Below, piece by piece: positions 45,851-56,843 of a stretch of 64,000 bases of DNA. Source of the stretch: Patescibacteria group bacterium (GTDB lineage: Bacteria; Patescibacteriota; UBA1384; XYA2-FULL-43-10; 1-14-0-10-43-13). The stretch spans positions 198,177-262,176 of the forward strand of contig JBAYVE010000001.1 of assembly GCA_041674765.1 (NCBI GenBank), read 5' to 3'. The stretch's first letter is position 1, and each line of letters opens with the position of its first letter. The notes under the pieces are model-generated. The model saw nothing but the letters and a program-made list of their open reading frames with translations, made no database searches and had not been told where the DNA came from. The translations under genes and the position numbers were made by a program.

Positions 45851-46249
45851 ATGGAAAACGTTTTGGAGATTCTTCAAAACAGTCTCAGACACAATCATTT
45901 TCTGAAAGCGATTTATTCATCAAATTTCCAGACAATACTGGATGGGATCGGTCCGTTTACAGTGCTAGCACCGGTTGACGAGGCCTTTTTGAATTTACCG
46001 GACGATGTCTTTAATAAGTTGCTGGAGAATCAAGATCAGTTGAATATGATGGTCGGGCAACATGTTTTTACAGGTCGTTATGATGAAAAAGATCTTCGGG
46101 ATACGGATGAAATAATAACAATGGATAACAAAAACTTGGCGATTGAACTGCATGGCGAAGGGCTAATAGTGGGCGGCGCCAAAATAATTGAGTCCGATAT
46201 TGAATGCTCAAATGGCATCATCCATAGGGTGGATTTAGTGCTATTGTAA
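45851..46249 (+). CDS. fasciclin (FAS1) domain protein
   Basis: FTVLAPVDEAFLNLP.. and ..NGIIHRVDLVLL are FAS1 motifs. Confidence 0.65.
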   Translation: MENVLEILQNSLRHNHFLKAIYSSNFQTILDGIGPFTVLAPVDEAFLNLPDDVFNKLLENQDQLNMMVGQHVFTGRYDEKDLRDTDEIITMDNKNLAIELHGEGLIVGGAKIIESDIECSNGIIHRVDLVLL

Positions 46250-46309: not shown

Positions 46310-47251
46310 ATGAATTTGCATCAATCGTTGTTATCGCTAAAACAAAAGAAGTTCTGGTTAATTCTAGGATTAATTATTATTACCGCCGTAGTTGTTGGCG
46401 GTGGTACTTATTATTTCATTCATACTAAGGCCGATAATGATAAAAATAACCTTCAGGCCCAAATTGATGATTTGAACGGAAAATTATCAAATGCCAATGT
46501 TAATGCAAATACTAATTTAAATATAAATGCAAATAATAACACGAACACAGCACCCGATCCGACCGCTGGTTGGACTGAATTTTCTTTGTCTTTCGCTAAT
46601 GCTGCCATAAAATATCCGGCAAATTGGCCTTCTATTAAGAGGTTGGATGCTCCGGCAGATGAAAACCAGGTGGCTTATTACTCATTCGATAATAATCCAG
46701 AGATCGAATCACCTCAGCGTGCCTTAACAGAATATAATATAGCTGAGTGGGTAAAATCTACTCCAGAGGAAGGTTACCGTTTATATAAAGAGAGGAAGGC
46801 AGAATTATTAAATATAGTAAAAGAGTTATTTGCGACAAGCAGTCTGACTGAAGCGTTAAAAACAAAGTTTAATAATTATAGTCTTGAATTTATGCCTTAT
46901 AGCACAAGAGTGTATGTCGATTATTTCTCAACGGTAGATGAAAAGTCCAAAGGCATTTCAATGATAAATATCCAGGGACAGGATGTTGGGTTAGCTTCAA
47001 CTTACAATGCATTTATTTATAACAGTGAGCATAATATTGTTGTAAGTGCCCGCAAAGAATTATCAGCACCATCAATTGAAAGAATCCGCAGTACAGTTGA
47101 CTACAGTCTTAAAGGAGACCCTTTGGAAAAATCTGGTAAGGACGCTCAGGATTCCTTTGCTAATTTGGTAAAGAATACCCCGAGAAACCAACTTGATTTT
47201 GCAGATCAGATGGATGAGGTAAACAACATACTCAAGTCACTAACATTTTAA
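46310..47251 (+). CDS. hypothetical membrane-anchored protein with Asn-rich low-complexity region
   Basis: N-terminal TM helix. NANVNANTNLNINANNNTNT stretch. Confidence 0.45.
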   Translation: MNLHQSLLSLKQKKFWLILGLIIITAVVVGGGTYYFIHTKADNDKNNLQAQIDDLNGKLSNANVNANTNLNINANNNTNTAPDPTAGWTEFSLSFANAAIKYPANWPSIKRLDAPADENQVAYYSFDNNPEIESPQRALTEYNIAEWVKSTPEEGYRLYKERKAELLNIVKELFATSSLTEALKTKFNNYSLEFMPYSTRVYVDYFSTVDEKSKGISMINIQGQDVGLASTYNAFIYNSEHNIVVSARKELSAPSIERIRSTVDYSLKGDPLEKSGKDAQDSFANLVKNTPRNQLDFADQMDEVNNILKSLTF

Positions 47252-47789: not shown

Positions 47790-47866
47790 CAGCCGTTAGA
47801 CAGGCCTTCCGAGTATTCGGGAGGCCTGCATTTATAGTTTTAAGATATTGGTGTTATAATTGATCT

Positions 47867-48355
47867 ATGGTTTCGATTCTGATTTTTATATTTCTTTTGG
47901 TTTTGCTCCTTTTGGGACTGCTGGGAGTAATTTTGCCGATGCTTCCAGGCATTCCCCTGATGTTCTTGACGGTGCTGCTTTACGCTATTTTCGATCATTT
48001 CGATCGGATTACGGTTACAAATATTGTTATACTCGGCATCTTTACAGCTCTATCTATATTAACCGACTACGCCTCAGGAATCCTTGGCGCCAAATTTTTC
48101 GGGGCATCGAAACAGGGGATGATTGGCGGCCTCATCGGTGGTATTGCCGGCTTATTTATCTTTCCGCCGTTTGGAATTTTTATCGGGTTATTTTTGGGCG
48201 TCATAGCATCAGAACTATTGCTTACTGGCAAAAAGATAAATCGTGCGATAAAATCAGGTGCCGGAGCCTTGCTCGGATCACTCGCCGGAATCTTAACAAA
48301 CTTTTTGGTCGGGTTGATATTTATTATCTATTTTATCTTTGGCTTTTGGCGATGA
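47867..48355 (+). CDS. DUF456-like small membrane protein
   Basis: Four TM helices, with GIPLMFLTVLLYAIFDHFD. Confidence 0.5.
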   Translation: MVSILIFIFLLVLLLLGLLGVILPMLPGIPLMFLTVLLYAIFDHFDRITVTNIVILGIFTALSILTDYASGILGAKFFGASKQGMIGGLIGGIAGLFIFPPFGIFIGLFLGVIASELLLTGKKINRAIKSGAGALLGSLAGILTNFLVGLIFIIYFIFGFWR

Positions 48356-50436
48356 AAAAAAAGAAGAATCAATTAGTAATTGCAATTTCCGGAGTTTCCG
48401 GAGCAGGGAAAGGGACACTGCTCGATTTTTTGCGTGATATGAAGGAGACTTTTTGCAATGTACCTTCCTATACAACAAGAGCCAAGAGACCGGGCGAGGC
48501 AGAGGGCACAAATCGTTTTTTTATTTCCGAAGAAGAATTTGATGCGGGTATAAAGGCCGGTGAATTTATCGAATGGGAGAAAGTCCATCAATACCGCTAT
48601 GGCCGGAAAAAGAAGGACGTCGAAGCGGCGATAGAGAGCGGCAAAATCCCTTTTATGGAGATTGATGTCAAAGGCACGCAAAAGTTCAAAAAGATATTTC
48701 CCGGACTCGTCAGTATTTTTATATTGCCACCAAGTTTTGAAGAAGCAATGAAAAGAGTTCGAAACAGGGGAGCTGAATCCGAGGAGGACATTAAACTTCG
48801 AGCTTCGCGCTATGAAATGGAAACATCTTATAAAAATGCCTATGATCATATTCTGATCAATGATGATTTGAATAAAGCCAAGGCCGATCTTCTGTCGATC
48901 ATTCGCAAAGAGGAAGAGAAATTAAGAAAAAGTCAATTTGATCTGAGACATTCGATTTTGATCGGTCTGGGAGCGTTGTTTCTAACAACTTTTTTCACGG
49001 TGGCTGCGGCAGCTTCACTTCTGCTGACCGGAACGATGAGCGAGCAGACAAAGGAAAACAAAATTTTACAAACGGAGGAAGAAGCCCAAACTCCCGAGCC
49101 CGAGGTAGTCGAGGCCATTCCATCTGTAGAAGAAATATCCAAGGAAGTCGCCAAAAATCCTCCAAAACGCACAGCTCCGATAAACTCGGGGCAGACAACC
49201 ACAAATAGCGACGGAACTAAAACCACGGTTGTTTCGACCGGCGGAGGCCTCGGCGATCTGAGTGGCGTCTTATCCAGCAATGTGAGTGCTAGCACTCCAT
49301 ATGGGGTTCCCTACAGGGATGAGACTGGAGAATATTCTAATTTGGGTACTGTCTTGAAGGACTATCTAAATAACAGTCTTCGCTGGAAGAACGAGATTAC
49401 TGCCTTGAAGGAGATTGTATTGCGGAATGCCGGCAATACCGGATGGAGTGGCCAGTATCTTGGCCAATATACGGCAGATTCCAGTGGGAAGATTACAAAT
49501 GCTAGTGGTGTCATCGTTTTGAATGCCTATTATGGAAGCGGCTCCAACTTTATTGAGGATATGAAATTGGTTTTTTCCCATGAATATGGGCATCACTATA
49601 CGCTTTATCATAAATGGGTGGATTGGAGTTTGCCAAATGGTGTACGCTTTCCTGATAGCTACTATCAACTAAGAGGACTCTCCAAAACAACAACTTCAAC
49701 AGACTACTCGAAAGGATGGATCAATTGCGAATCTGAAATCATTGCCGAGGACTATTCTTACCTCTATTCCGGCTATGGCTATAGCGGAGTAGCGGATATC
49801 TATGGTCTTCCTTCCTCTGCAGTTAGAAATTGGCTGGACAAAATCGGTGATAGTTCGCTTTTGAATACTATTGTTAATCAGGCGCCAACAATTAATATAA
49901 TTTCGCCAGCTCCCGCCGCTGTACTTTCTGGTACTTTTTCATTTTCAGCTGAAGCTAGTGACGATATTGGAATTTCAAAGGTCTCTTTCTATATCGATAA
50001 CACTTTGATCCTTGAGGATACAAAGGCACCGTATGCTGTCGAGATCAATACATCAAGTTTCCAAAACGGCCAGTATAATCTTCGGGCTGTAGTTTCAGAT
50101 GGCACTTTGTCGGCTGAAAAGATTACGGCTGTCACTTTGCAAAATAATGTGGTTGATCTGGAGAAACCTGTAGTTACTATTATTTCACCTACTGAAAACC
50201 CTCAAATTCTGAAAAATGATAATTTAACTCTAAATGTTACAGCAACAGATAATAATCGGATTGATCGGATCGAACTCTATCTTGATGACGAAAAGCAAAA
50301 CAGTTGGAAGCTTGCGGATCTCTCACTACGGGTCTCATTCAAAAATTTCCCTGTTGGGAACTATACTCTAAAATTTAGAGCTTTCGATGAGGCGGGGAAT
50401 TATGGTGATGCCACACTTCAAGTAGTCAAAATTTAA
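48352..50436 (+). CDS. gmk: fusion protein: complete guanylate kinase domain + TM helix + extracytoplasmic HExxH (zincin-like) region + two Ig-like domains
   Basis: ATG overlaps the upstream stop (ATGA). Gmk motifs ISGVSGAGKGTLL, YTTRAKRPGEAEGTNRFFISEEEF, EIDVKGTQK. TM ILIGLGALFLTTFFTVAAAASLLLTG. FSHEYGHHYTLYH. Two ~100-aa Ig-like repeats (..ISPAPAAVLSGTFSFSAEASDDIGISKVSFYID.., ..IISPTENPQILKNDNLTLNVTATDNNRIDRIELYLD..). Confidence 0.55.
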   Translation: MKKKKNQLVIAISGVSGAGKGTLLDFLRDMKETFCNVPSYTTRAKRPGEAEGTNRFFISEEEFDAGIKAGEFIEWEKVHQYRYGRKKKDVEAAIESGKIPFMEIDVKGTQKFKKIFPGLVSIFILPPSFEEAMKRVRNRGAESEEDIKLRASRYEMETSYKNAYDHILINDDLNKAKADLLSIIRKEEEKLRKSQFDLRHSILIGLGALFLTTFFTVAAAASLLLTGTMSEQTKENKILQTEEEAQTPEPEVVEAIPSVEEISKEVAKNPPKRTAPINSGQTTTNSDGTKTTVVSTGGGLGDLSGVLSSNVSASTPYGVPYRDETGEYSNLGTVLKDYLNNSLRWKNEITALKEIVLRNAGNTGWSGQYLGQYTADSSGKITNASGVIVLNAYYGSGSNFIEDMKLVFSHEYGHHYTLYHKWVDWSLPNGVRFPDSYYQLRGLSKTTTSTDYSKGWINCESEIIAEDYSYLYSGYGYSGVADIYGLPSSAVRNWLDKIGDSSLLNTIVNQAPTINIISPAPAAVLSGTFSFSAEASDDIGISKVSFYIDNTLILEDTKAPYAVEINTSSFQNGQYNLRAVVSDGTLSAEKITAVTLQNNVVDLEKPVVTIISPTENPQILKNDNLTLNVTATDNNRIDRIELYLDDEKQNSWKLADLSLRVSFKNFPVGNYTLKFRAFDEAGNYGDATLQVVKI

Positions 50437-50499
50437 AAGGCAAAACGAAAAAGTTAAAACTAATCTGTTCGTTCCACGAACGGACTTTATAATAGTTCA

Positions 50500-50889: not shown

Positions 50890-53142
50890 ATGTTCACAAA
50901 AATCCGGAAAAGAAATGGCAAACTTGTCGATTTCGATGCTGAAAAAATTGCAACAGTCATAGCCAAAGCTGGTAAAGCCGCAGGTGAGTTCGACGAAGCG
51001 GTTGCCAAAAAGCTGGCAGACAAAGTCCTGAGGGAGGCACCGGAAAAAATCAGGCGCAAAATTCCGACGGTAGAGGAGATACAAGATATCGTCGAAGACG
51101 TTTTATTGACGTCTAAATATAAAGCGACAGCGAGGGGATACGTTATCTACCGTCAGAAACACGCTGAAATGCGTGAATTAGCTGAAACTCAAAGAGTCGA
51201 TCTGATGGATCAATATTTGAAAAATCTTGACTGGCAGGTCAAGGAGAACTCCAATATGGCTTATTCGCTTCAGGGGTTAAACAATTATATTTCCTCCGAA
51301 GTTTCGAAAAGCTACTGGTTGCACAAAGTTTACACTCCAGAAGTCGCCCGTGCCAATTCTGAAGGCGATATGCATATCCATGACCTAGATAAGCTCTCGA
51401 CCTATTGTGTCGGCTGGGACCTTCAGGATCTCTTGCGCGAAGGTTTTAAGGGTGCTGAAGGCAAGATCGAGTCGAAGCCTGCAAAACATCTCAAAACTGC
51501 CTTGGGCCAGCTTGTAAATTTCTTCTACACAATGCAGGGCGAGTCAGCCGGGGCTCAGGCCGTTTCTAATTTCGATACCCTGATGGCACCATATATTCGC
51601 TATGATAAGCTCTCGGTCAAAGAGGTCAAACAGAGTTTGCAGGAATTCATGTTCAATATGAATGTGCCAACGAGAGTTGGTTTTCAGACACCTTTTACTA
51701 ATGTGACGATGGATTTGATTTGCCCGAGCACTTTGGCTGACGAACCGGTTATCTCGGGGGGGCAACCTCAAAAGGAGACCTATAAAGAGTTCCAAAAAGA
51801 GATGAATATTTTCAACGAAGCCTTTACTGAAGTTATCTCTGAGGGCGACGCCAGAGGCCGTGTTTTTACTTTCCCGATCCCTACTTACAACATCACCAAG
51901 GATTTTGACTGGAGCAACAAAGAAATCGACGGGGTTTGGAAGATGACCGCTAAATATGGAATTCCTTATTTCTCAAACTTTGTAAATTCCGATATGAGTC
52001 CTGAAGATGCCCGAAGCATGTGTTGCCGTCTCCGTCTGGATAATCGCGAGCTTCGGAAACGCGGCGGCGGACTATTCGGCGCAAATCCGCTGACTGGTTC
52101 TGTCGGCGTGGTAACAATCAATTTACCCAGACTCGGTTACCGTTCAAGGGACAAAAGAGAATTCCTCTACAATCTTTCCTATGTCATGGATCTGGCCAAA
52201 GAGAGTCTCGAAATGAAGCGTAAAGTTTTGGAGAATATGACCGAAGCCGGACTCTATCCTTACACCAAATTCTATCTGCGCAATATTAAAAAGAGAGACG
52301 ATCGTTATTGGGGCAACCATTTCTCGACCATCGGCCTCTTGGGTATGAATGAAGCTTGTCTGAACCTTTTCGGCCGTGATGTTACAACGGCAGAAGGTCA
52401 GCAGTTTGCCAGAGAAGTGCTCGAATTTATGCGCGAGAGAATGGCTGTTTACCAAAATGAAACCGGTAATTATTACAACTTGGAAGCAACTCCGGCCGAA
52501 GGCACCTCCTTCCGTTTGGCGTTAAAAGACAAAGAGAGATATCCGGACATTATGGTCGCCAATGAAGGACAATATCAAGATCAAAAAGTCTCTCCATATT
52601 ATACCAATTCATCCCACGTCCCCGTTGATTTTACGGATGATGCCTTCGAACTGCTTGATCTCCAAGATGATCTACAGACAAAATATACCGGCGGTACGGT
52701 GGTCCATCTCTTTGTCGGAGAAGAAATAAAGGATACTACGGCAGTCAAAAACTTTGTTCGGACAGTTTGTGAAAATTATCATCTACCATACTTCACGATC
52801 ACTCCGACCTTCTCTATCTGCCCAAACCACGGTTATATCGCCGGCAAGGTGATGACCTGTGAAAAGTGTGGTGCCGCGAACGAAGTTTACTCACGAATAG
52901 TTGGTTATATCCGCCCTATTCAGCAGTGGAATGCCGGCAAACGGGCCGAATTTGATGACCGCCAGACTTACCATATTGAGGTTAAGAAGAACAAAGAAGA
53001 AGAAAGCGCAACTGAAGAATTATCATTTGTTGATCAGATCAAAGATAAAGCGGACGAGATCAAGGAGAAAATTGCCGATGTTGTGATAGAGCCGGCTTTA
53101 GCGGAGGTGGGAGCAGACTCGGAACAAGCAGCACTGGTATAG
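50890..53142 (+). CDS. nrdD: anaerobic ribonucleoside-triphosphate reductase (class III)
   Basis: SD GGAGGGAG. N-terminal ATP-cone (KIRKRNGKLVDFDAEKI). C-terminal Zn ribbon CPNHG..CEKCG. Glycyl-radical motif RIVGYIR. Confidence 0.9.
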   Translation: MFTKIRKRNGKLVDFDAEKIATVIAKAGKAAGEFDEAVAKKLADKVLREAPEKIRRKIPTVEEIQDIVEDVLLTSKYKATARGYVIYRQKHAEMRELAETQRVDLMDQYLKNLDWQVKENSNMAYSLQGLNNYISSEVSKSYWLHKVYTPEVARANSEGDMHIHDLDKLSTYCVGWDLQDLLREGFKGAEGKIESKPAKHLKTALGQLVNFFYTMQGESAGAQAVSNFDTLMAPYIRYDKLSVKEVKQSLQEFMFNMNVPTRVGFQTPFTNVTMDLICPSTLADEPVISGGQPQKETYKEFQKEMNIFNEAFTEVISEGDARGRVFTFPIPTYNITKDFDWSNKEIDGVWKMTAKYGIPYFSNFVNSDMSPEDARSMCCRLRLDNRELRKRGGGLFGANPLTGSVGVVTINLPRLGYRSRDKREFLYNLSYVMDLAKESLEMKRKVLENMTEAGLYPYTKFYLRNIKKRDDRYWGNHFSTIGLLGMNEACLNLFGRDVTTAEGQQFAREVLEFMRERMAVYQNETGNYYNLEATPAEGTSFRLALKDKERYPDIMVANEGQYQDQKVSPYYTNSSHVPVDFTDDAFELLDLQDDLQTKYTGGTVVHLFVGEEIKDTTAVKNFVRTVCENYHLPYFTITPTFSICPNHGYIAGKVMTCEKCGAANEVYSRIVGYIRPIQQWNAGKRAEFDDRQTYHIEVKKNKEEESATEELSFVDQIKDKADEIKEKIADVVIEPALAEVGADSEQAALV

Positions 53143-53266
53143 GCGGGAACACCCAAATCTCAAGTACCAAATAACAAATAAATTCCAATGCCCAAAAATA
53201 AAATATTGGAATTTGATGATTTTAAGATTTATTTGGTACTTGTTATTTGTAATTTATTATTTAACT

Positions 53267-54028
53267 ATGAACATCGCAGGTATCCAAAAACTTACTCTGG
53301 TGGACTTTCCCGGTCATGTGGCAGCGACGGTTTTTACTAGAGGCTGTACTTTTCGCTGTCCTTTCTGCCACAATCCTGAGCTGGTTGTACCGGAACAATT
53401 TAGTCCTCTTCTATCCGAAAAACAGATTTTTGATTTCTTAGAGTCGCGCTACGGGAAATTGACTGGAATATGCCTGACCGGTGGTGAACCGACCATGCAA
53501 AAGGATTGCGACCAGTTCATCTCCCATATGAAGGCGCTTGGCTTTGATATGAAATTAGATACCAACGGCTCGAATCCAAAGATGCTGGAGAAAATCATCA
53601 AGGATGGTGATGTCGACTATATCGCCATGGACATCAAGGGAACACTTGAAAAGTATCCCCAAATTATCAATTATCAATTATCAATTATCAATAATGGAAT
53701 TGGCAATTTAGAGATTGAAAAATTAAGTGAAAATTGGAAATTGAAAAATGAAAATTTAATATCGAACATTCAAAAATCCATCAAATTGATCATGTCATCG
53801 GGAATTGACTATGAATTTCGGACCACGATTTGCCATCCCATTCATGAAGTCGAGGATTTCTACGGCATAGGGGAATTGATCAAAGGTGCCAAGCGCTATT
53901 TTATACAACAATTTGTCAAGTCAAAACATGTCGATGCTCACCAGAACTTTGAGCCGTTTACTGACTCTGAGATCGCAAAATCTCTCGATATTATACAACA
54001 ATTTGTCAAGTCGGCAGAGGTAAGATAG
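53267..54028 (+). CDS. nrdG: anaerobic ribonucleotide reductase activating protein (radical SAM) with low-complexity insertion
   Basis: MNIAGIQKLTLVDFPGHVAATVFTRGCTFRCPFCHNPEL (CX3CX2C). Insertion IINYQLSIINNG is encoded by an AATTATC triplet repeat. Duplicated IQQFVKS near the C-terminus. Confidence 0.7.
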   Translation: MNIAGIQKLTLVDFPGHVAATVFTRGCTFRCPFCHNPELVVPEQFSPLLSEKQIFDFLESRYGKLTGICLTGGEPTMQKDCDQFISHMKALGFDMKLDTNGSNPKMLEKIIKDGDVDYIAMDIKGTLEKYPQIINYQLSIINNGIGNLEIEKLSENWKLKNENLISNIQKSIKLIMSSGIDYEFRTTICHPIHEVEDFYGIGELIKGAKRYFIQQFVKSKHVDAHQNFEPFTDSEIAKSLDIIQQFVKSAEVR

Positions 54029-55144: not shown

Positions 55145-56317
55145 ATGATTTTTGCAAAAAAGATAATAATCAAATACCATGAATTTATGAACGGTATTAT
55201 TTATGATACTCTTTACGGCAAAATCCCTTACACAGATCTTGATCTGAAAATTTTTGCATCGCCTGAAATGGCTCGGTTGAGGCGGGTTTCGCTTTCGACT
55301 GTGCCAAATTGGTGTTCGGCCAGCGGTGCCTGTTGTAGCCGTTTTGAGCACAGCATAGGTGCATGGCATTTGGCAAAGCTTGTTGCCAGGAAACCGGAGT
55401 TTGCGAATATCGCTAAAGATATTGAGTTTGCTGGCCTCTTTCATGATGCCGGCTCGCCGCCATTTTCGCATGGCGCTGACCATTTTCAGAAAAAAATACT
55501 TGGTAAAAAGCACGATGAAATTGTAGCCGATCTAATCATGGGCTCAGCGTTAGGGAAGGAGATTGAAAGCCAGGGAGGCAATCCTGAAGTTATCTCTAAA
55601 TTAATCTCAGGCACGTTTCCGCCGTTCTCAGATCTCATCAATAACTCGATTGATTTGGATAATCTTGATAATACCCTCCGTTTTGGCCTCTCGATGGGGA
55701 TATTCAAGAAGCGCTATTACAATCCGCTCAGGATCGCTGACAATTTTTACCTAAAATCAGGAGAACTAGCTCTAAGAAGTTCAAAGAATATCAGGGAATG
55801 GGAAAATTGCCGGGAGATTGTGTATGACTTCATTAATAATAAATATCCCGAGGGCATGATTTACCGTGCGATGCATTTAGCTTATCGAGCCGGTGATTTG
55901 ACAAAAGACTTTTTTCGGCTGGATGACTTCCAAGCGACAGCATTTCTAAAAAAGTGTAACCCGGGGACAAAACGGATTATTGAACGGCTGGAATCATGGG
56001 ACTTTGACAAAGTCATATTTAGCCAGAATTTTCTGAGCTTAGACAAAATCGAGCCTAGAATGATAGATGATCCTGATTATCGCTTCATTCTTGCAGATAG
56101 GATTAGTTCTGAATTCAAGATTCCGCCGGAAGATATTTCCTGCCTCGCTGGAAAGAATAAAGGCTTCAAACAAATTCATCTGCCAATTGGCAGAGAATTT
56201 CATCAACCGCAGACCAAGCCATCGTGGCGGCTTCGGATTGATGTGAATAAAAAATGGCTATATCTCAAAAAAGAGATAAATCATTTCGTGAAACAGAGGC
56301 TGACAAATGGAAATTGA
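55145..56317 (+). CDS. HD-domain dNTP triphosphohydrolase-like protein (Dgt/SAMHD1-like)
   Basis: RFEHSIGAWHLA and LFHDAGSPPFSHGADH are HD motifs. True start may be the MNGIIYD.. at 55187. Confidence 0.6.
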   Translation: MIFAKKIIIKYHEFMNGIIYDTLYGKIPYTDLDLKIFASPEMARLRRVSLSTVPNWCSASGACCSRFEHSIGAWHLAKLVARKPEFANIAKDIEFAGLFHDAGSPPFSHGADHFQKKILGKKHDEIVADLIMGSALGKEIESQGGNPEVISKLISGTFPPFSDLINNSIDLDNLDNTLRFGLSMGIFKKRYYNPLRIADNFYLKSGELALRSSKNIREWENCREIVYDFINNKYPEGMIYRAMHLAYRAGDLTKDFFRLDDFQATAFLKKCNPGTKRIIERLESWDFDKVIFSQNFLSLDKIEPRMIDDPDYRFILADRISSEFKIPPEDISCLAGKNKGFKQIHLPIGREFHQPQTKPSWRLRIDVNKKWLYLKKEINHFVKQRLTNGN

Positions 56318-56843
56318 AGGTGAAAAAATAATAATCAGACAAAATAATCTTTCCGAATTCAATTACAACTTTATTCTTCGCTGGCTGACAGATCCGGAGG
56401 TGATGAAGTATGTCGGCTATTTTAGACGGACCTTTTTCTTTAAAAGCAAAGAGCAAGCCCGTGAATTTTTCGAGGCGCTAGAAGATGGTGTCTTTTTTGG
56501 TATTTATTTAAAGAATAGCGATGAGCTGATTGGCTATGCTACTCTTTCAAACTTCAATCCTGAGAAAAAGGAGTGTAAATTCGGTATAGTGATTGGCGAA
56601 AAGAGGTATTGGGGGCAGGGAGCTGGTAGCGAGGTAGCCCTGCTGGTGGCCGGTTATGCTTTTATTAAGTTAAAACAAGACAAAGTAACCTTGACTTGTG
56701 CTGAGGCCAATAGAGCCGCCATAAAGGCTTATGAAAATGCCGGCTTTGAAGTTGTACAGAGAATCCCCAAGGAGAGGACTATTTTTCTGAATGGGCGCTG
56801 GCAACTACACGGCACGATCAAAATGTCCAAGGATAAAAAATAG
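56307..56843 (+). CDS. GNAT family N-acetyltransferase (RimJ/RimL-like)
   Basis: ILRWLTDPEVMKYVG, RYWGQGAGSEVA, 178 aa. Confidence 0.7.
   Translation: MEIEGEKIIIRQNNLSEFNYNFILRWLTDPEVMKYVGYFRRTFFFKSKEQAREFFEALEDGVFFGIYLKNSDELIGYATLSNFNPEKKECKFGIVIGEKRYWGQGAGSEVALLVAGYAFIKLKQDKVTLTCAEANRAAIKAYENAGFEVVQRIPKERTIFLNGRWQLHGTIKMSKDKK

Follow-up and report, generated by a model that had tools for sequence, protein, structure and literature searches.

Why would a guanylate kinase, a housekeeping enzyme of the cytoplasm, be made as one polypeptide with a surface protein? The question is raised by a gene in a 64,000-nucleotide stretch of DNA (the window) from a Patescibacteria group bacterium (assembly GCA_041674765.1, contig JBAYVE010000001.1, positions 198,177 to 262,176 of the forward strand). 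Here, a single open reading frame (ORF), which we call gmk::X, runs from a guanylate kinase (Gmk) through a transmembrane (TM) helix into a large module predicted to lie outside the cell. We consider it reasonably likely that gmk::X is a genuine and stable fusion of formerly adjacent, co-transcribed genes in Berkelbacteria-like Patescibacteria, combining a working Gmk with a surface module, with no signalling between the two. The gene and its parts are as follows, with nucleotide (nt) positions counted from the start of the window and amino acid (aa) positions from the first methionine; AF2 denotes AlphaFold2 and pLDDT its predicted local distance difference test score.

48352..50436, + strand: fused gene gmk::X, a single uninterrupted ORF of 694 codons plus stop
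48352..48921, + strand: predicted cytoplasmic guanylate kinase domain, aa 1-190 (PF00625, TIGR03263, alignment to 2AN9, AF2 pLDDT >90)
48949..49026, + strand: predicted single TM helix, aa ~200-225 (sole hydropathy peak; a basic stretch, RKEEEKLRKSQFDLRH, stands before the helix)
49027..49128, + strand: predicted disordered stalk rich in Glu, Pro and Thr, aa 226-259 (AF2 pLDDT <50; unconserved in the homologue alignment)
49141..49884, + strand: predicted extracytoplasmic HExxH domain of an uncharacterised family, aa 264-511, ~250 aa (AF2, conservation)
49885..50139, + strand: Big_7 Ig-like domain 1, aa 512-596 (PF17957; AF2 beta-sandwich)
50161..50433, + strand: Big_7 Ig-like domain 2, aa 604-694 (second stretch of PF17957; AF2 beta-sandwich)

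The product thus has five parts: the Gmk domain, one TM helix, a disordered stalk, a domain with the motifs HEYGHH and EIIAEDY, and two Big_7 domains. It is on record as GenBank MFA7253167.1, 'MAG: guanylate kinase [Patescibacteria group bacterium]', an exact match (P0001 in our homologue set) on a 365-kb contig. An initial annotation of this stretch had also read one open frame from 48352, but its length of 695 aa counted the stop; the protein has 694. In the span 48352-50436, the remaining two forward frames contain 37 and 53 stops. Homologues begin at a Met aligned with 48352, and M1 is nearly invariant. The same annotation had set aside an 858-aa form as an artefact, rightly so; that form is a TTG-started over-extension that overlaps the upstream DUF456 gene in another frame.

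Is the fusion real? To keep Gmk from driving the matches, we used aa 201-694 alone as the query against 5.8 billion protein clusters. Among the 120 best homologue clusters, 39 carried PF00625 as well as PF17957; these fused proteins have lengths of ~673-740 aa and share 44-54% identity with the query. They were drawn from NCBI, JGI, ENA and Logan, and several are labelled Candidatus Berkelbacteria (e.g. PIS07901.1 / UniRef A0A2H0W746). The fused proteins group as one clade when the ectodomains are placed in a neighbour-joining tree (all our trees are neighbour-joining trees on short domains).

The initial annotation had offered both a genuine fusion and an undetected frameshift merging two genes. 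For an error of sequencing or assembly in the window contig, one can point to two members of the fused clade (loci L007 and L020) that lie one nucleotide frame change away from the fused state, in L020 within a run of seven A (A7), which means that indels at the junction either occur or are miscalled; true split forms also exist. Nevertheless, we find such an error scarcely credible, and a contig-specific frameshift or misassembly is excluded because the same continuous architecture recurs in those 39 clusters, from independent samples and assemblers and at the divergence given above. The continuous ORF was confirmed on the DNA of both the window and L014, and a single fused gene is called in L008 and L009. 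A protein identical to that of the window is recorded in NCBI, JGI, Logan and ENA. The window junction contains no vestigial stop, no Shine-Dalgarno site plus start and no long homopolymer, and the layout of the linker is conserved in all fused members. The genuine fusion is therefore what stands. Nor do relatives encode the two parts only as separate genes, which the annotation had said would refute the fusion; fused and split forms both exist.

Where did the fusion come from? The remaining ~80 of the 120 best matches are proteins of ~500 aa with the same ectodomain and no Gmk, which we call X. Stand-alone X (P0059, P0054 and P0077, deposited as 'Ig-like domain-containing protein') shares the ectodomain at 39-54% identity over query aa 201-694, in the layout of a short basic tail, TM anchor, stalk, PPK/NSDG hairpin, HEYGHH domain and two Big_7 domains. 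It differs from gmk::X in having no Gmk, only a cytoplasmic tail of 10-40 residues, and in many cases an unrelated neighbourhood. X is unlinked to gmk near HU/dnaX/dnaB (L001, L002 and L004), between cysS and prfA (L003) and elsewhere (L006). In L010, L011 and L015, the two genes are adjacent and separate, with gmk (189-204 aa) followed by a 31-51-nt spacer carrying a GGAGG Shine-Dalgarno site and then X (513-515 aa); in L010 and L011, nrdD-nrdG lie directly 3' of X. The window has the order DUF456 - gmk::X - nrdD - nrdG, as does L008, while L009 has gmk::X - nrdD - nrdG without DUF456 and with one extra ORF after gmk::X. The order X-nrdD-nrdG is common to L007, L008, L009, L010, L011 and L022.

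Because split relatives have gmk and X adjacent and separate, we read the fusion as a product of neighbouring genes; from these comparisons, gmk::X appears to be a read-through of two adjacent, co-oriented genes that has been kept through deep divergence. Within the order gmk-X-nrdD-nrdG, it would have been enough for gmk to lose its stop, or for the frame to shift by 1 nt between gmk and X. In this respect it resembles 'Rosetta-stone' operon fusions, where split, adjacent, co-oriented genes correspond to one ORF elsewhere and a lost stop or a 1-nt shift of frame separates the two states. However, the partners here (a cytoplasmic housekeeping kinase and a surface protein) have no known shared pathway, and therefore the usual inference of a functional link is not secure.

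In L022 (4730-9990; GCA_041890195.1, JBEEQD010000988.1), the first 14 nt of X are shared with a gene for a 94-aa glutaredoxin, and nrdD-nrdG come after X. In at least three clades, then, X stands directly 5' of nrdD-nrdG, preceded by gmk or by glutaredoxin. In L012 (1171-2518; JBAXQZ010000043.1), the stand-alone gmk closest to that of the window (54-56% identity) overlaps by 14 nt a gene for a 261-aa protein with a TM anchor and two Big_7 domains, lacking the whole HExxH domain and hence a natural deletion variant of X; no long + strand ORF is listed downstream of it.

Three candidates for unfused proteins within the fused clade did not hold up as such. P0026 is merely cut by the end of its contig (L021). 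P0029 (L020) is not a clean two-gene case, as a 1-nt shift falls in the A7 run (~483-489) and the start codon as called falls midway through the TM helix. In P0035 (L007), the X frame overlaps gmk by 11 nt in another frame, and both frames are open for ~20 nt (622-644). The L020 and L007 splits may be fissions, slippage sites or sequencing errors.

The two halves do not share one pattern of similarity. The Gmk of the split locus L011 (3097-5284) is 62% identical to that of the fused protein P0002, whereas identity between their X modules is 48%; L010 (4399-6548) and L011 show the reverse, with 62% in X and 48% in Gmk. This discordance suggests that X alleles were swapped in place, or that fusion and fission occurred repeatedly.

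Is the Gmk half still an enzyme? The complete Gmk with P-loop, GMP-binding residues and lid that the initial annotation had described is indeed present. Pfam Guanylate_kin (PF00625) matches aa 10-186 (E 1.6e-35, 122.9 bits vs a cutoff of 25.2), and the NCBIfam equivalog model TIGR03263 (guanyl_kin) scores 174.1 bits vs a cutoff of 160.45. The P-loop GVSGAGKGT occupies aa 14-22 (nt 48391-48417), SYTTR begins at aa 39, and R135, R139, R150 and R153 are the lid arginines. E. coli Gmk (2AN9) aligns end to end (query 11-199 vs 8-196). The fused protein shares with known bacterial Gmks (TIGR03263/PF00625; 2AN9 and S. aureus 2J41) full-length homology over aa 10-190, intact motifs and the genomic slot. 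It differs in that the known enzymes are soluble and ~190-210 aa long, whereas here a TM helix and then 470 aa of extracytoplasmic module follow, and in having Arg rather than Tyr at position 55 of the window copy.

We aligned 39 fused Gmk domains with 3 stand-alone neighbours (42 sequences). Invariant or nearly so are G14, G17, G19, K20 and S/T22 of the P-loop, S39, Y40, T41, R43, R46, E74, Y83, G84 and D105, and all four lid arginines. The pattern looks like that of an enzyme under purifying selection, not of a dead domain like those of the membrane-associated guanylate kinases (MAGUKs), and because the catalytic residues are conserved across the fused clade, the fused Gmk is probably an active kinase. 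It is probably also the housekeeping kinase and only Gmk of the cell; tblastn with four Gmk queries found no second gmk in the window, which covers 64 kb of the 365-kb contig.

The opposite view, that the domain is a dead scaffold serving as an interaction module while a separate gmk does the housekeeping, has some points to recommend it. Codon 55 (48514-48516) encodes Arg in the window, where 40 of the 42 aligned relatives and E. coli Gmk have Tyr, a residue that in the yeast Gmk structure contacts the GMP phosphate; only one other member of the clade has Arg55. Many fused-clade members have SYTDR in place of the usual SYTTR, and a second gmk may lie outside the window. MAGUK GK domains are among the PDB matches, although far below true Gmks (E 5e-18 vs 4e-33). 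We nevertheless think a pseudoenzyme very unlikely. In the alignment, there is little or no variation at the P-loop GxxGxGK(S/T), at either GMP-phosphate arginine, at E74, Y83 or D105, or at the lid arginines. The equivalog-level model is passed, and the domain takes the syntenic place that a stand-alone gmk has in split relatives, with 44-52% identity to it. These genomes are also small, and paralogues of housekeeping genes are rare in them. MAGUKs do resemble gmk::X in placing a GK-fold domain at the cytoplasmic face of a membrane. Their GK domains, though, are catalytically inactive and occur alongside PDZ and SH3 domains in proteins that attach to the membrane peripherally instead of being integral to it. 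The gmk::X product has intact and conserved P-loop and kinase motifs, is predicted to span the membrane and, by Pfam, has no PDZ, SH3 or L27 domain, so that the likeness is one of name only.

How are the halves joined? In the full-length AF2 model (pLDDT 88), a single unbroken helix spanning aa 173-225 comprises the last Gmk helix and the TM segment, and the ectodomain beyond the stalk is well folded. All fused homologues have a K/R-rich segment and then a TM helix, starting 2-10 residues past the Gmk match. There is one hydropathy peak with a K/R-rich N-terminal side, the N-terminus is that of Gmk beta1 and the P-loop, and no signal peptide is present. On account of the positive-inside rule, the missing signal peptide and the need of the kinase for cytoplasmic ATP, we infer a type-II (N-in/C-out) single-pass membrane protein, with Gmk against the inner face of the membrane. 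The TM helix of the initial annotation is confirmed, but the linker that it called Q/T-rich is rich in Glu, Pro and Thr. The window ORF offers no internal start for X, as ahead of the TM helix no Shine-Dalgarno site accompanies an in-frame ATG, GTG or TTG.

What is the outer half? Two of its domains were already apparent to the initial annotation as Ig-like repeats, and Pfam identifies both as Big_7 (PF17957, in two stretches; E 3.5e-32, 111 bits vs a cutoff of 24.1). In the AF2 model, aa 513-596 and 607-693 fold into all-beta domains, and profile matches of this region in the PDB are to the Fn3-like/Ig modules of CbhA. Two fused proteins, P0072 and P0084, have lost the first Big_7 domain and gained a Ser-, Gly-, Thr- and Pro-rich tail at the C-terminus. 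They belong to a fused sub-clade of 673-681 aa (e.g. L008 6001-8025) that also includes P0105, P0076, P0102 and P0119, these four assigned by length and clustering.

The central domain is less easily placed. The HEYGHH that the annotation had noted lies at aa 410-415 (nt 49579-49596) and EIIAEDY at nt 49735-49755, and a PPK motif and an NSDGxxTT hairpin are also conserved. The AF2 model of this domain (pLDDT 91, predicted template modelling score (pTM) 0.89) places in order a small hairpin, a three-stranded sheet, a long helix with HEYGHH, and later helices with EIIAEDY (E462, E466 and D467). Among 55-69 homologues, H410, E411, Y412, H414, H415, R432, P434, Y437, Y438, R441, W456, E462, A465, E466, Y468 and Y470 are invariant, and D467 is nearly so. 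The domain looks like a zincin (M43/M12 metzincins and gluzincins) in its invariant HExxH, placed by the model on a long helix after a three-stranded sheet, in the invariant or near-invariant acidic residues of a later predicted helix, one of which may be a downstream ligand, and in recurrent weak M43/reprolysin matches. It differs from zincins in matching nothing at a curated threshold, in having no metzincin Gly and no invariant third His or Met-turn, and in having no similar solved structure by Foldseek.

Pfam Peptidase_M43 gave sub-threshold matches in 9 of 20 members of the family (best E 0.0016), and Reprolysin_5 and Reprolysin_3 were likewise sub-threshold. NCBIfam and PHROGs gave no match for the central domain itself; remote relatives gave very weak matches to the MYPU_1760 HExxH metalloprotease model (NCBIfam) and to the phrog_87 metallo-protease (PHROGs). 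Foldseek with the central-domain model found nothing similar in the PDB (best E 0.14, template modelling score 0.12-0.15) or in BFVD (best E 0.049, score 0.28), and three hidden Markov model profiles (A1, A2 and A5) gave only Ig-domain or chance matches to PDB sequences. Metzincin identity we reject: HEYGHHYTLYH has Thr for the Gly of HExxHxxGxxH, and all M43/reprolysin matches fall below cutoff. The third His (H420) is ~90% conserved, being Tyr in P0054, P0059 and P0116, and there is no invariant Met-turn, as M480 is variable and is Val in the window; the AF2 helix is continuous through aa 397-424.

A profile search of 1.84 billion representative proteins returned only 115 relatives of the HExxH domain, 36 of them at E<=1e-30, with the common motifs AHEYGHHxT, RxPxxYYxxRxL and WxxCDKEIxAEDY. 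These include Firmicutes surface proteins with SLH or CWB2 wall anchors (e.g. WP_110112571.1 and WP_350342405.1). We conclude from these profile comparisons that the central domain represents a rare, undescribed HExxH family. It is probably a zinc-dependent hydrolase, most likely a peptidase, and it may be a new zincin-like fold family with no solved relative. The 'metalloprotease' of the initial annotation is a hypothesis with weak support: the HExxH is invariant, but the matches to M43 and reprolysin are sub-threshold and no structure matches. Among P0138-P0175 are proteins from short metagenome contigs that consist of the HExxH domain alone (~200 aa) with no signal peptide or TM helix, and the family is therefore not exclusively extracellular.

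Do the two halves work together? If gmk::X is the stable fusion we propose, its N-terminal 190 residues would make GDP from GMP and ATP in the cytoplasm, and would be held at the inner membrane face by the last Gmk helix running into the TM helix. Outside the cell, a disordered stalk of ~35 residues would bear the HExxH domain and then the two Big_7 domains. This outer half would correspond to the stand-alone, membrane-anchored surface protein of ~500 aa that many relatives produce. The main consequence would probably be equal co-expression of the two halves and a Gmk placed at the membrane, rather than signalling.

Functional coupling would be a different matter, and could take two forms. In one, the surface module works on extracellular material (nucleic acids, nucleotides or a host surface) and the tethered Gmk captures the GMP; in the other, oligomerisation of the ectodomain regulates Gmk and the GTP pool, much as in a single-pass receptor kinase, to which it may be likened. 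X does lie in a nucleotide-metabolism block in three clades, as gmk-X-nrdD-nrdG or glutaredoxin-X-nrdD-nrdG, and the fusion has persisted through deep divergence, each half being conserved. The continuous helix between Gmk and the membrane is predicted to be rigid. Moreover, Patescibacteria generally lack de novo nucleotide synthesis and depend on scavenged nucleotides, and bacterial Gmks are oligomers, some of them regulated by (p)ppGpp.

Coupling of either form nonetheless seems unlikely to us. Elsewhere, X occurs alone and in unrelated contexts (HU/dnaX/dnaB; cysS-prfA), and with a disordered stalk between the TM helix and the ectodomain a mechanical signal is unlikely to pass. In L007 and L020, both from the fused clade, a 1-nt frame change separates the halves, and the discordant histories of Gmk and X suggest that X alleles were swapped in place; both observations argue against an obligate link. 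The HExxH motif points to peptidases, not nucleases, and the profile matches of the ectodomain included no similarity to a nuclease or nucleotidase. We infer that the halves are not functionally coupled. The initial annotation had suggested that envelope state might be coupled to GMP/GDP or (p)ppGpp metabolism; we found no evidence in support of this, and read-through is simpler.

We think it quite unlikely, too, that the fusion is adaptive in the stronger sense that surface module and tethered Gmk form one unit in a nucleotide-acquisition island (gmk or glutaredoxin, X, nrdD-nrdG) of bacteria unable to make nucleotides de novo. The ectodomain could then be a new extracellular hydrolase that releases scavengeable material, the resulting GMP being phosphorylated at once at the membrane. 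Alternatively, the protein could be a receptor-like device in which clustering of the ectodomain sets Gmk activity and GTP supply upon host contact.

Several observations weigh against our reading of a stable, uncoupled fusion with a working Gmk and an outer hydrolase. The fusion has been kept across ~45-55% sequence divergence, which could reflect a real functional link, as could the position of X within a nucleotide-metabolism block (gmk or glutaredoxin, X, nrdD-nrdG). The window Gmk has the unusual R55, and its status as sole gmk was checked within the 64 kb of the window. The hydrolase assignment of the outer half draws on a motif and sub-threshold profiles, with no Foldseek match in the PDB or BFVD.

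How much of this is new? The proteins themselves are already deposited, as 'guanylate kinase', 'Ig-like domain-containing protein' or 'Guanylate kinase-like domain-containing protein', none of which names more than one half of the protein. In full-text searches of the literature, we came across no published description of a fusion between Gmk and a surface protein. What is new is the conserved membrane-spanning architecture, which combines a known enzyme, known Ig-like domains and an uncharacterised HExxH domain. It would mean that an essential and otherwise soluble nucleotide kinase can be permanently anchored to the membrane across a whole lineage of ultra-small bacteria. The unlinked, adjacent, fused and re-split forms also provide a natural series in which to ask whether 'Rosetta-stone' fusions are functional or reflect neutral genome compaction. 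The HExxH surface domain is rare and confidently foldable, has no solved or described relative, and is widespread in Berkelbacteria as well as being found on wall-anchored proteins of Firmicutes; it is a candidate for a part in the cell-surface biology of Patescibacteria, possibly in host attachment. Should coupling between the halves, or a new hydrolase fold or activity, prove true, the interest of the locus would rise substantially.

Around gmk::X, the window contains the following features.

47801-47828: terminator-like hairpin closing the preceding gene (consensus match only)
47831..47860, + strand: promoter-like site ahead of DUF456/gmk::X, TTTATA-18-TATAAT with an upstream TG (consensus match only)
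47867..48355, + strand: DUF456 small membrane protein, 162 aa (Pfam PF04306, E 1e-38)
50464..50484, + strand: terminator-like hairpin 3' of gmk::X (consensus match only)
50890-53142, + strand: nrdD, class III ribonucleotide reductase with ATP-cone (Pfam NRDD, E 4e-197; ATP-cone)
53213-54028, + strand: nrdG activase (Pfam Radical_SAM)

The TGA stop of the DUF456 gene and the ATG of gmk::X (48352) share an ATGA overlap, seen directly in the sequence as the initial annotation had reported. The arrangement DUF456-gmk::X is also found in L008, but not in L009. Together, the two genes could form a two-gene unit, bracketed by the promoter-like site and the hairpins.

Further surface-protein content lies just 5' of the locus: a 132-aa fasciclin (FAS1) domain protein (45851-46249, E 1e-25), followed by a 313-aa protein (46310-47251) that begins with a TM helix and contains an Asn-rich repeat (NANVNANTNLNINANNNTN). 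On the other side, 3' of nrdG (55145-56843), the gene for an HD-domain protein (390 aa) and that for a GNAT acetyltransferase (178 aa) share 11 nt at the start of the latter. In the relatives L009, L010 and L011, the nucleotide-related genes for MazG, NUDIX and SAICAR synthase are found near the same block.

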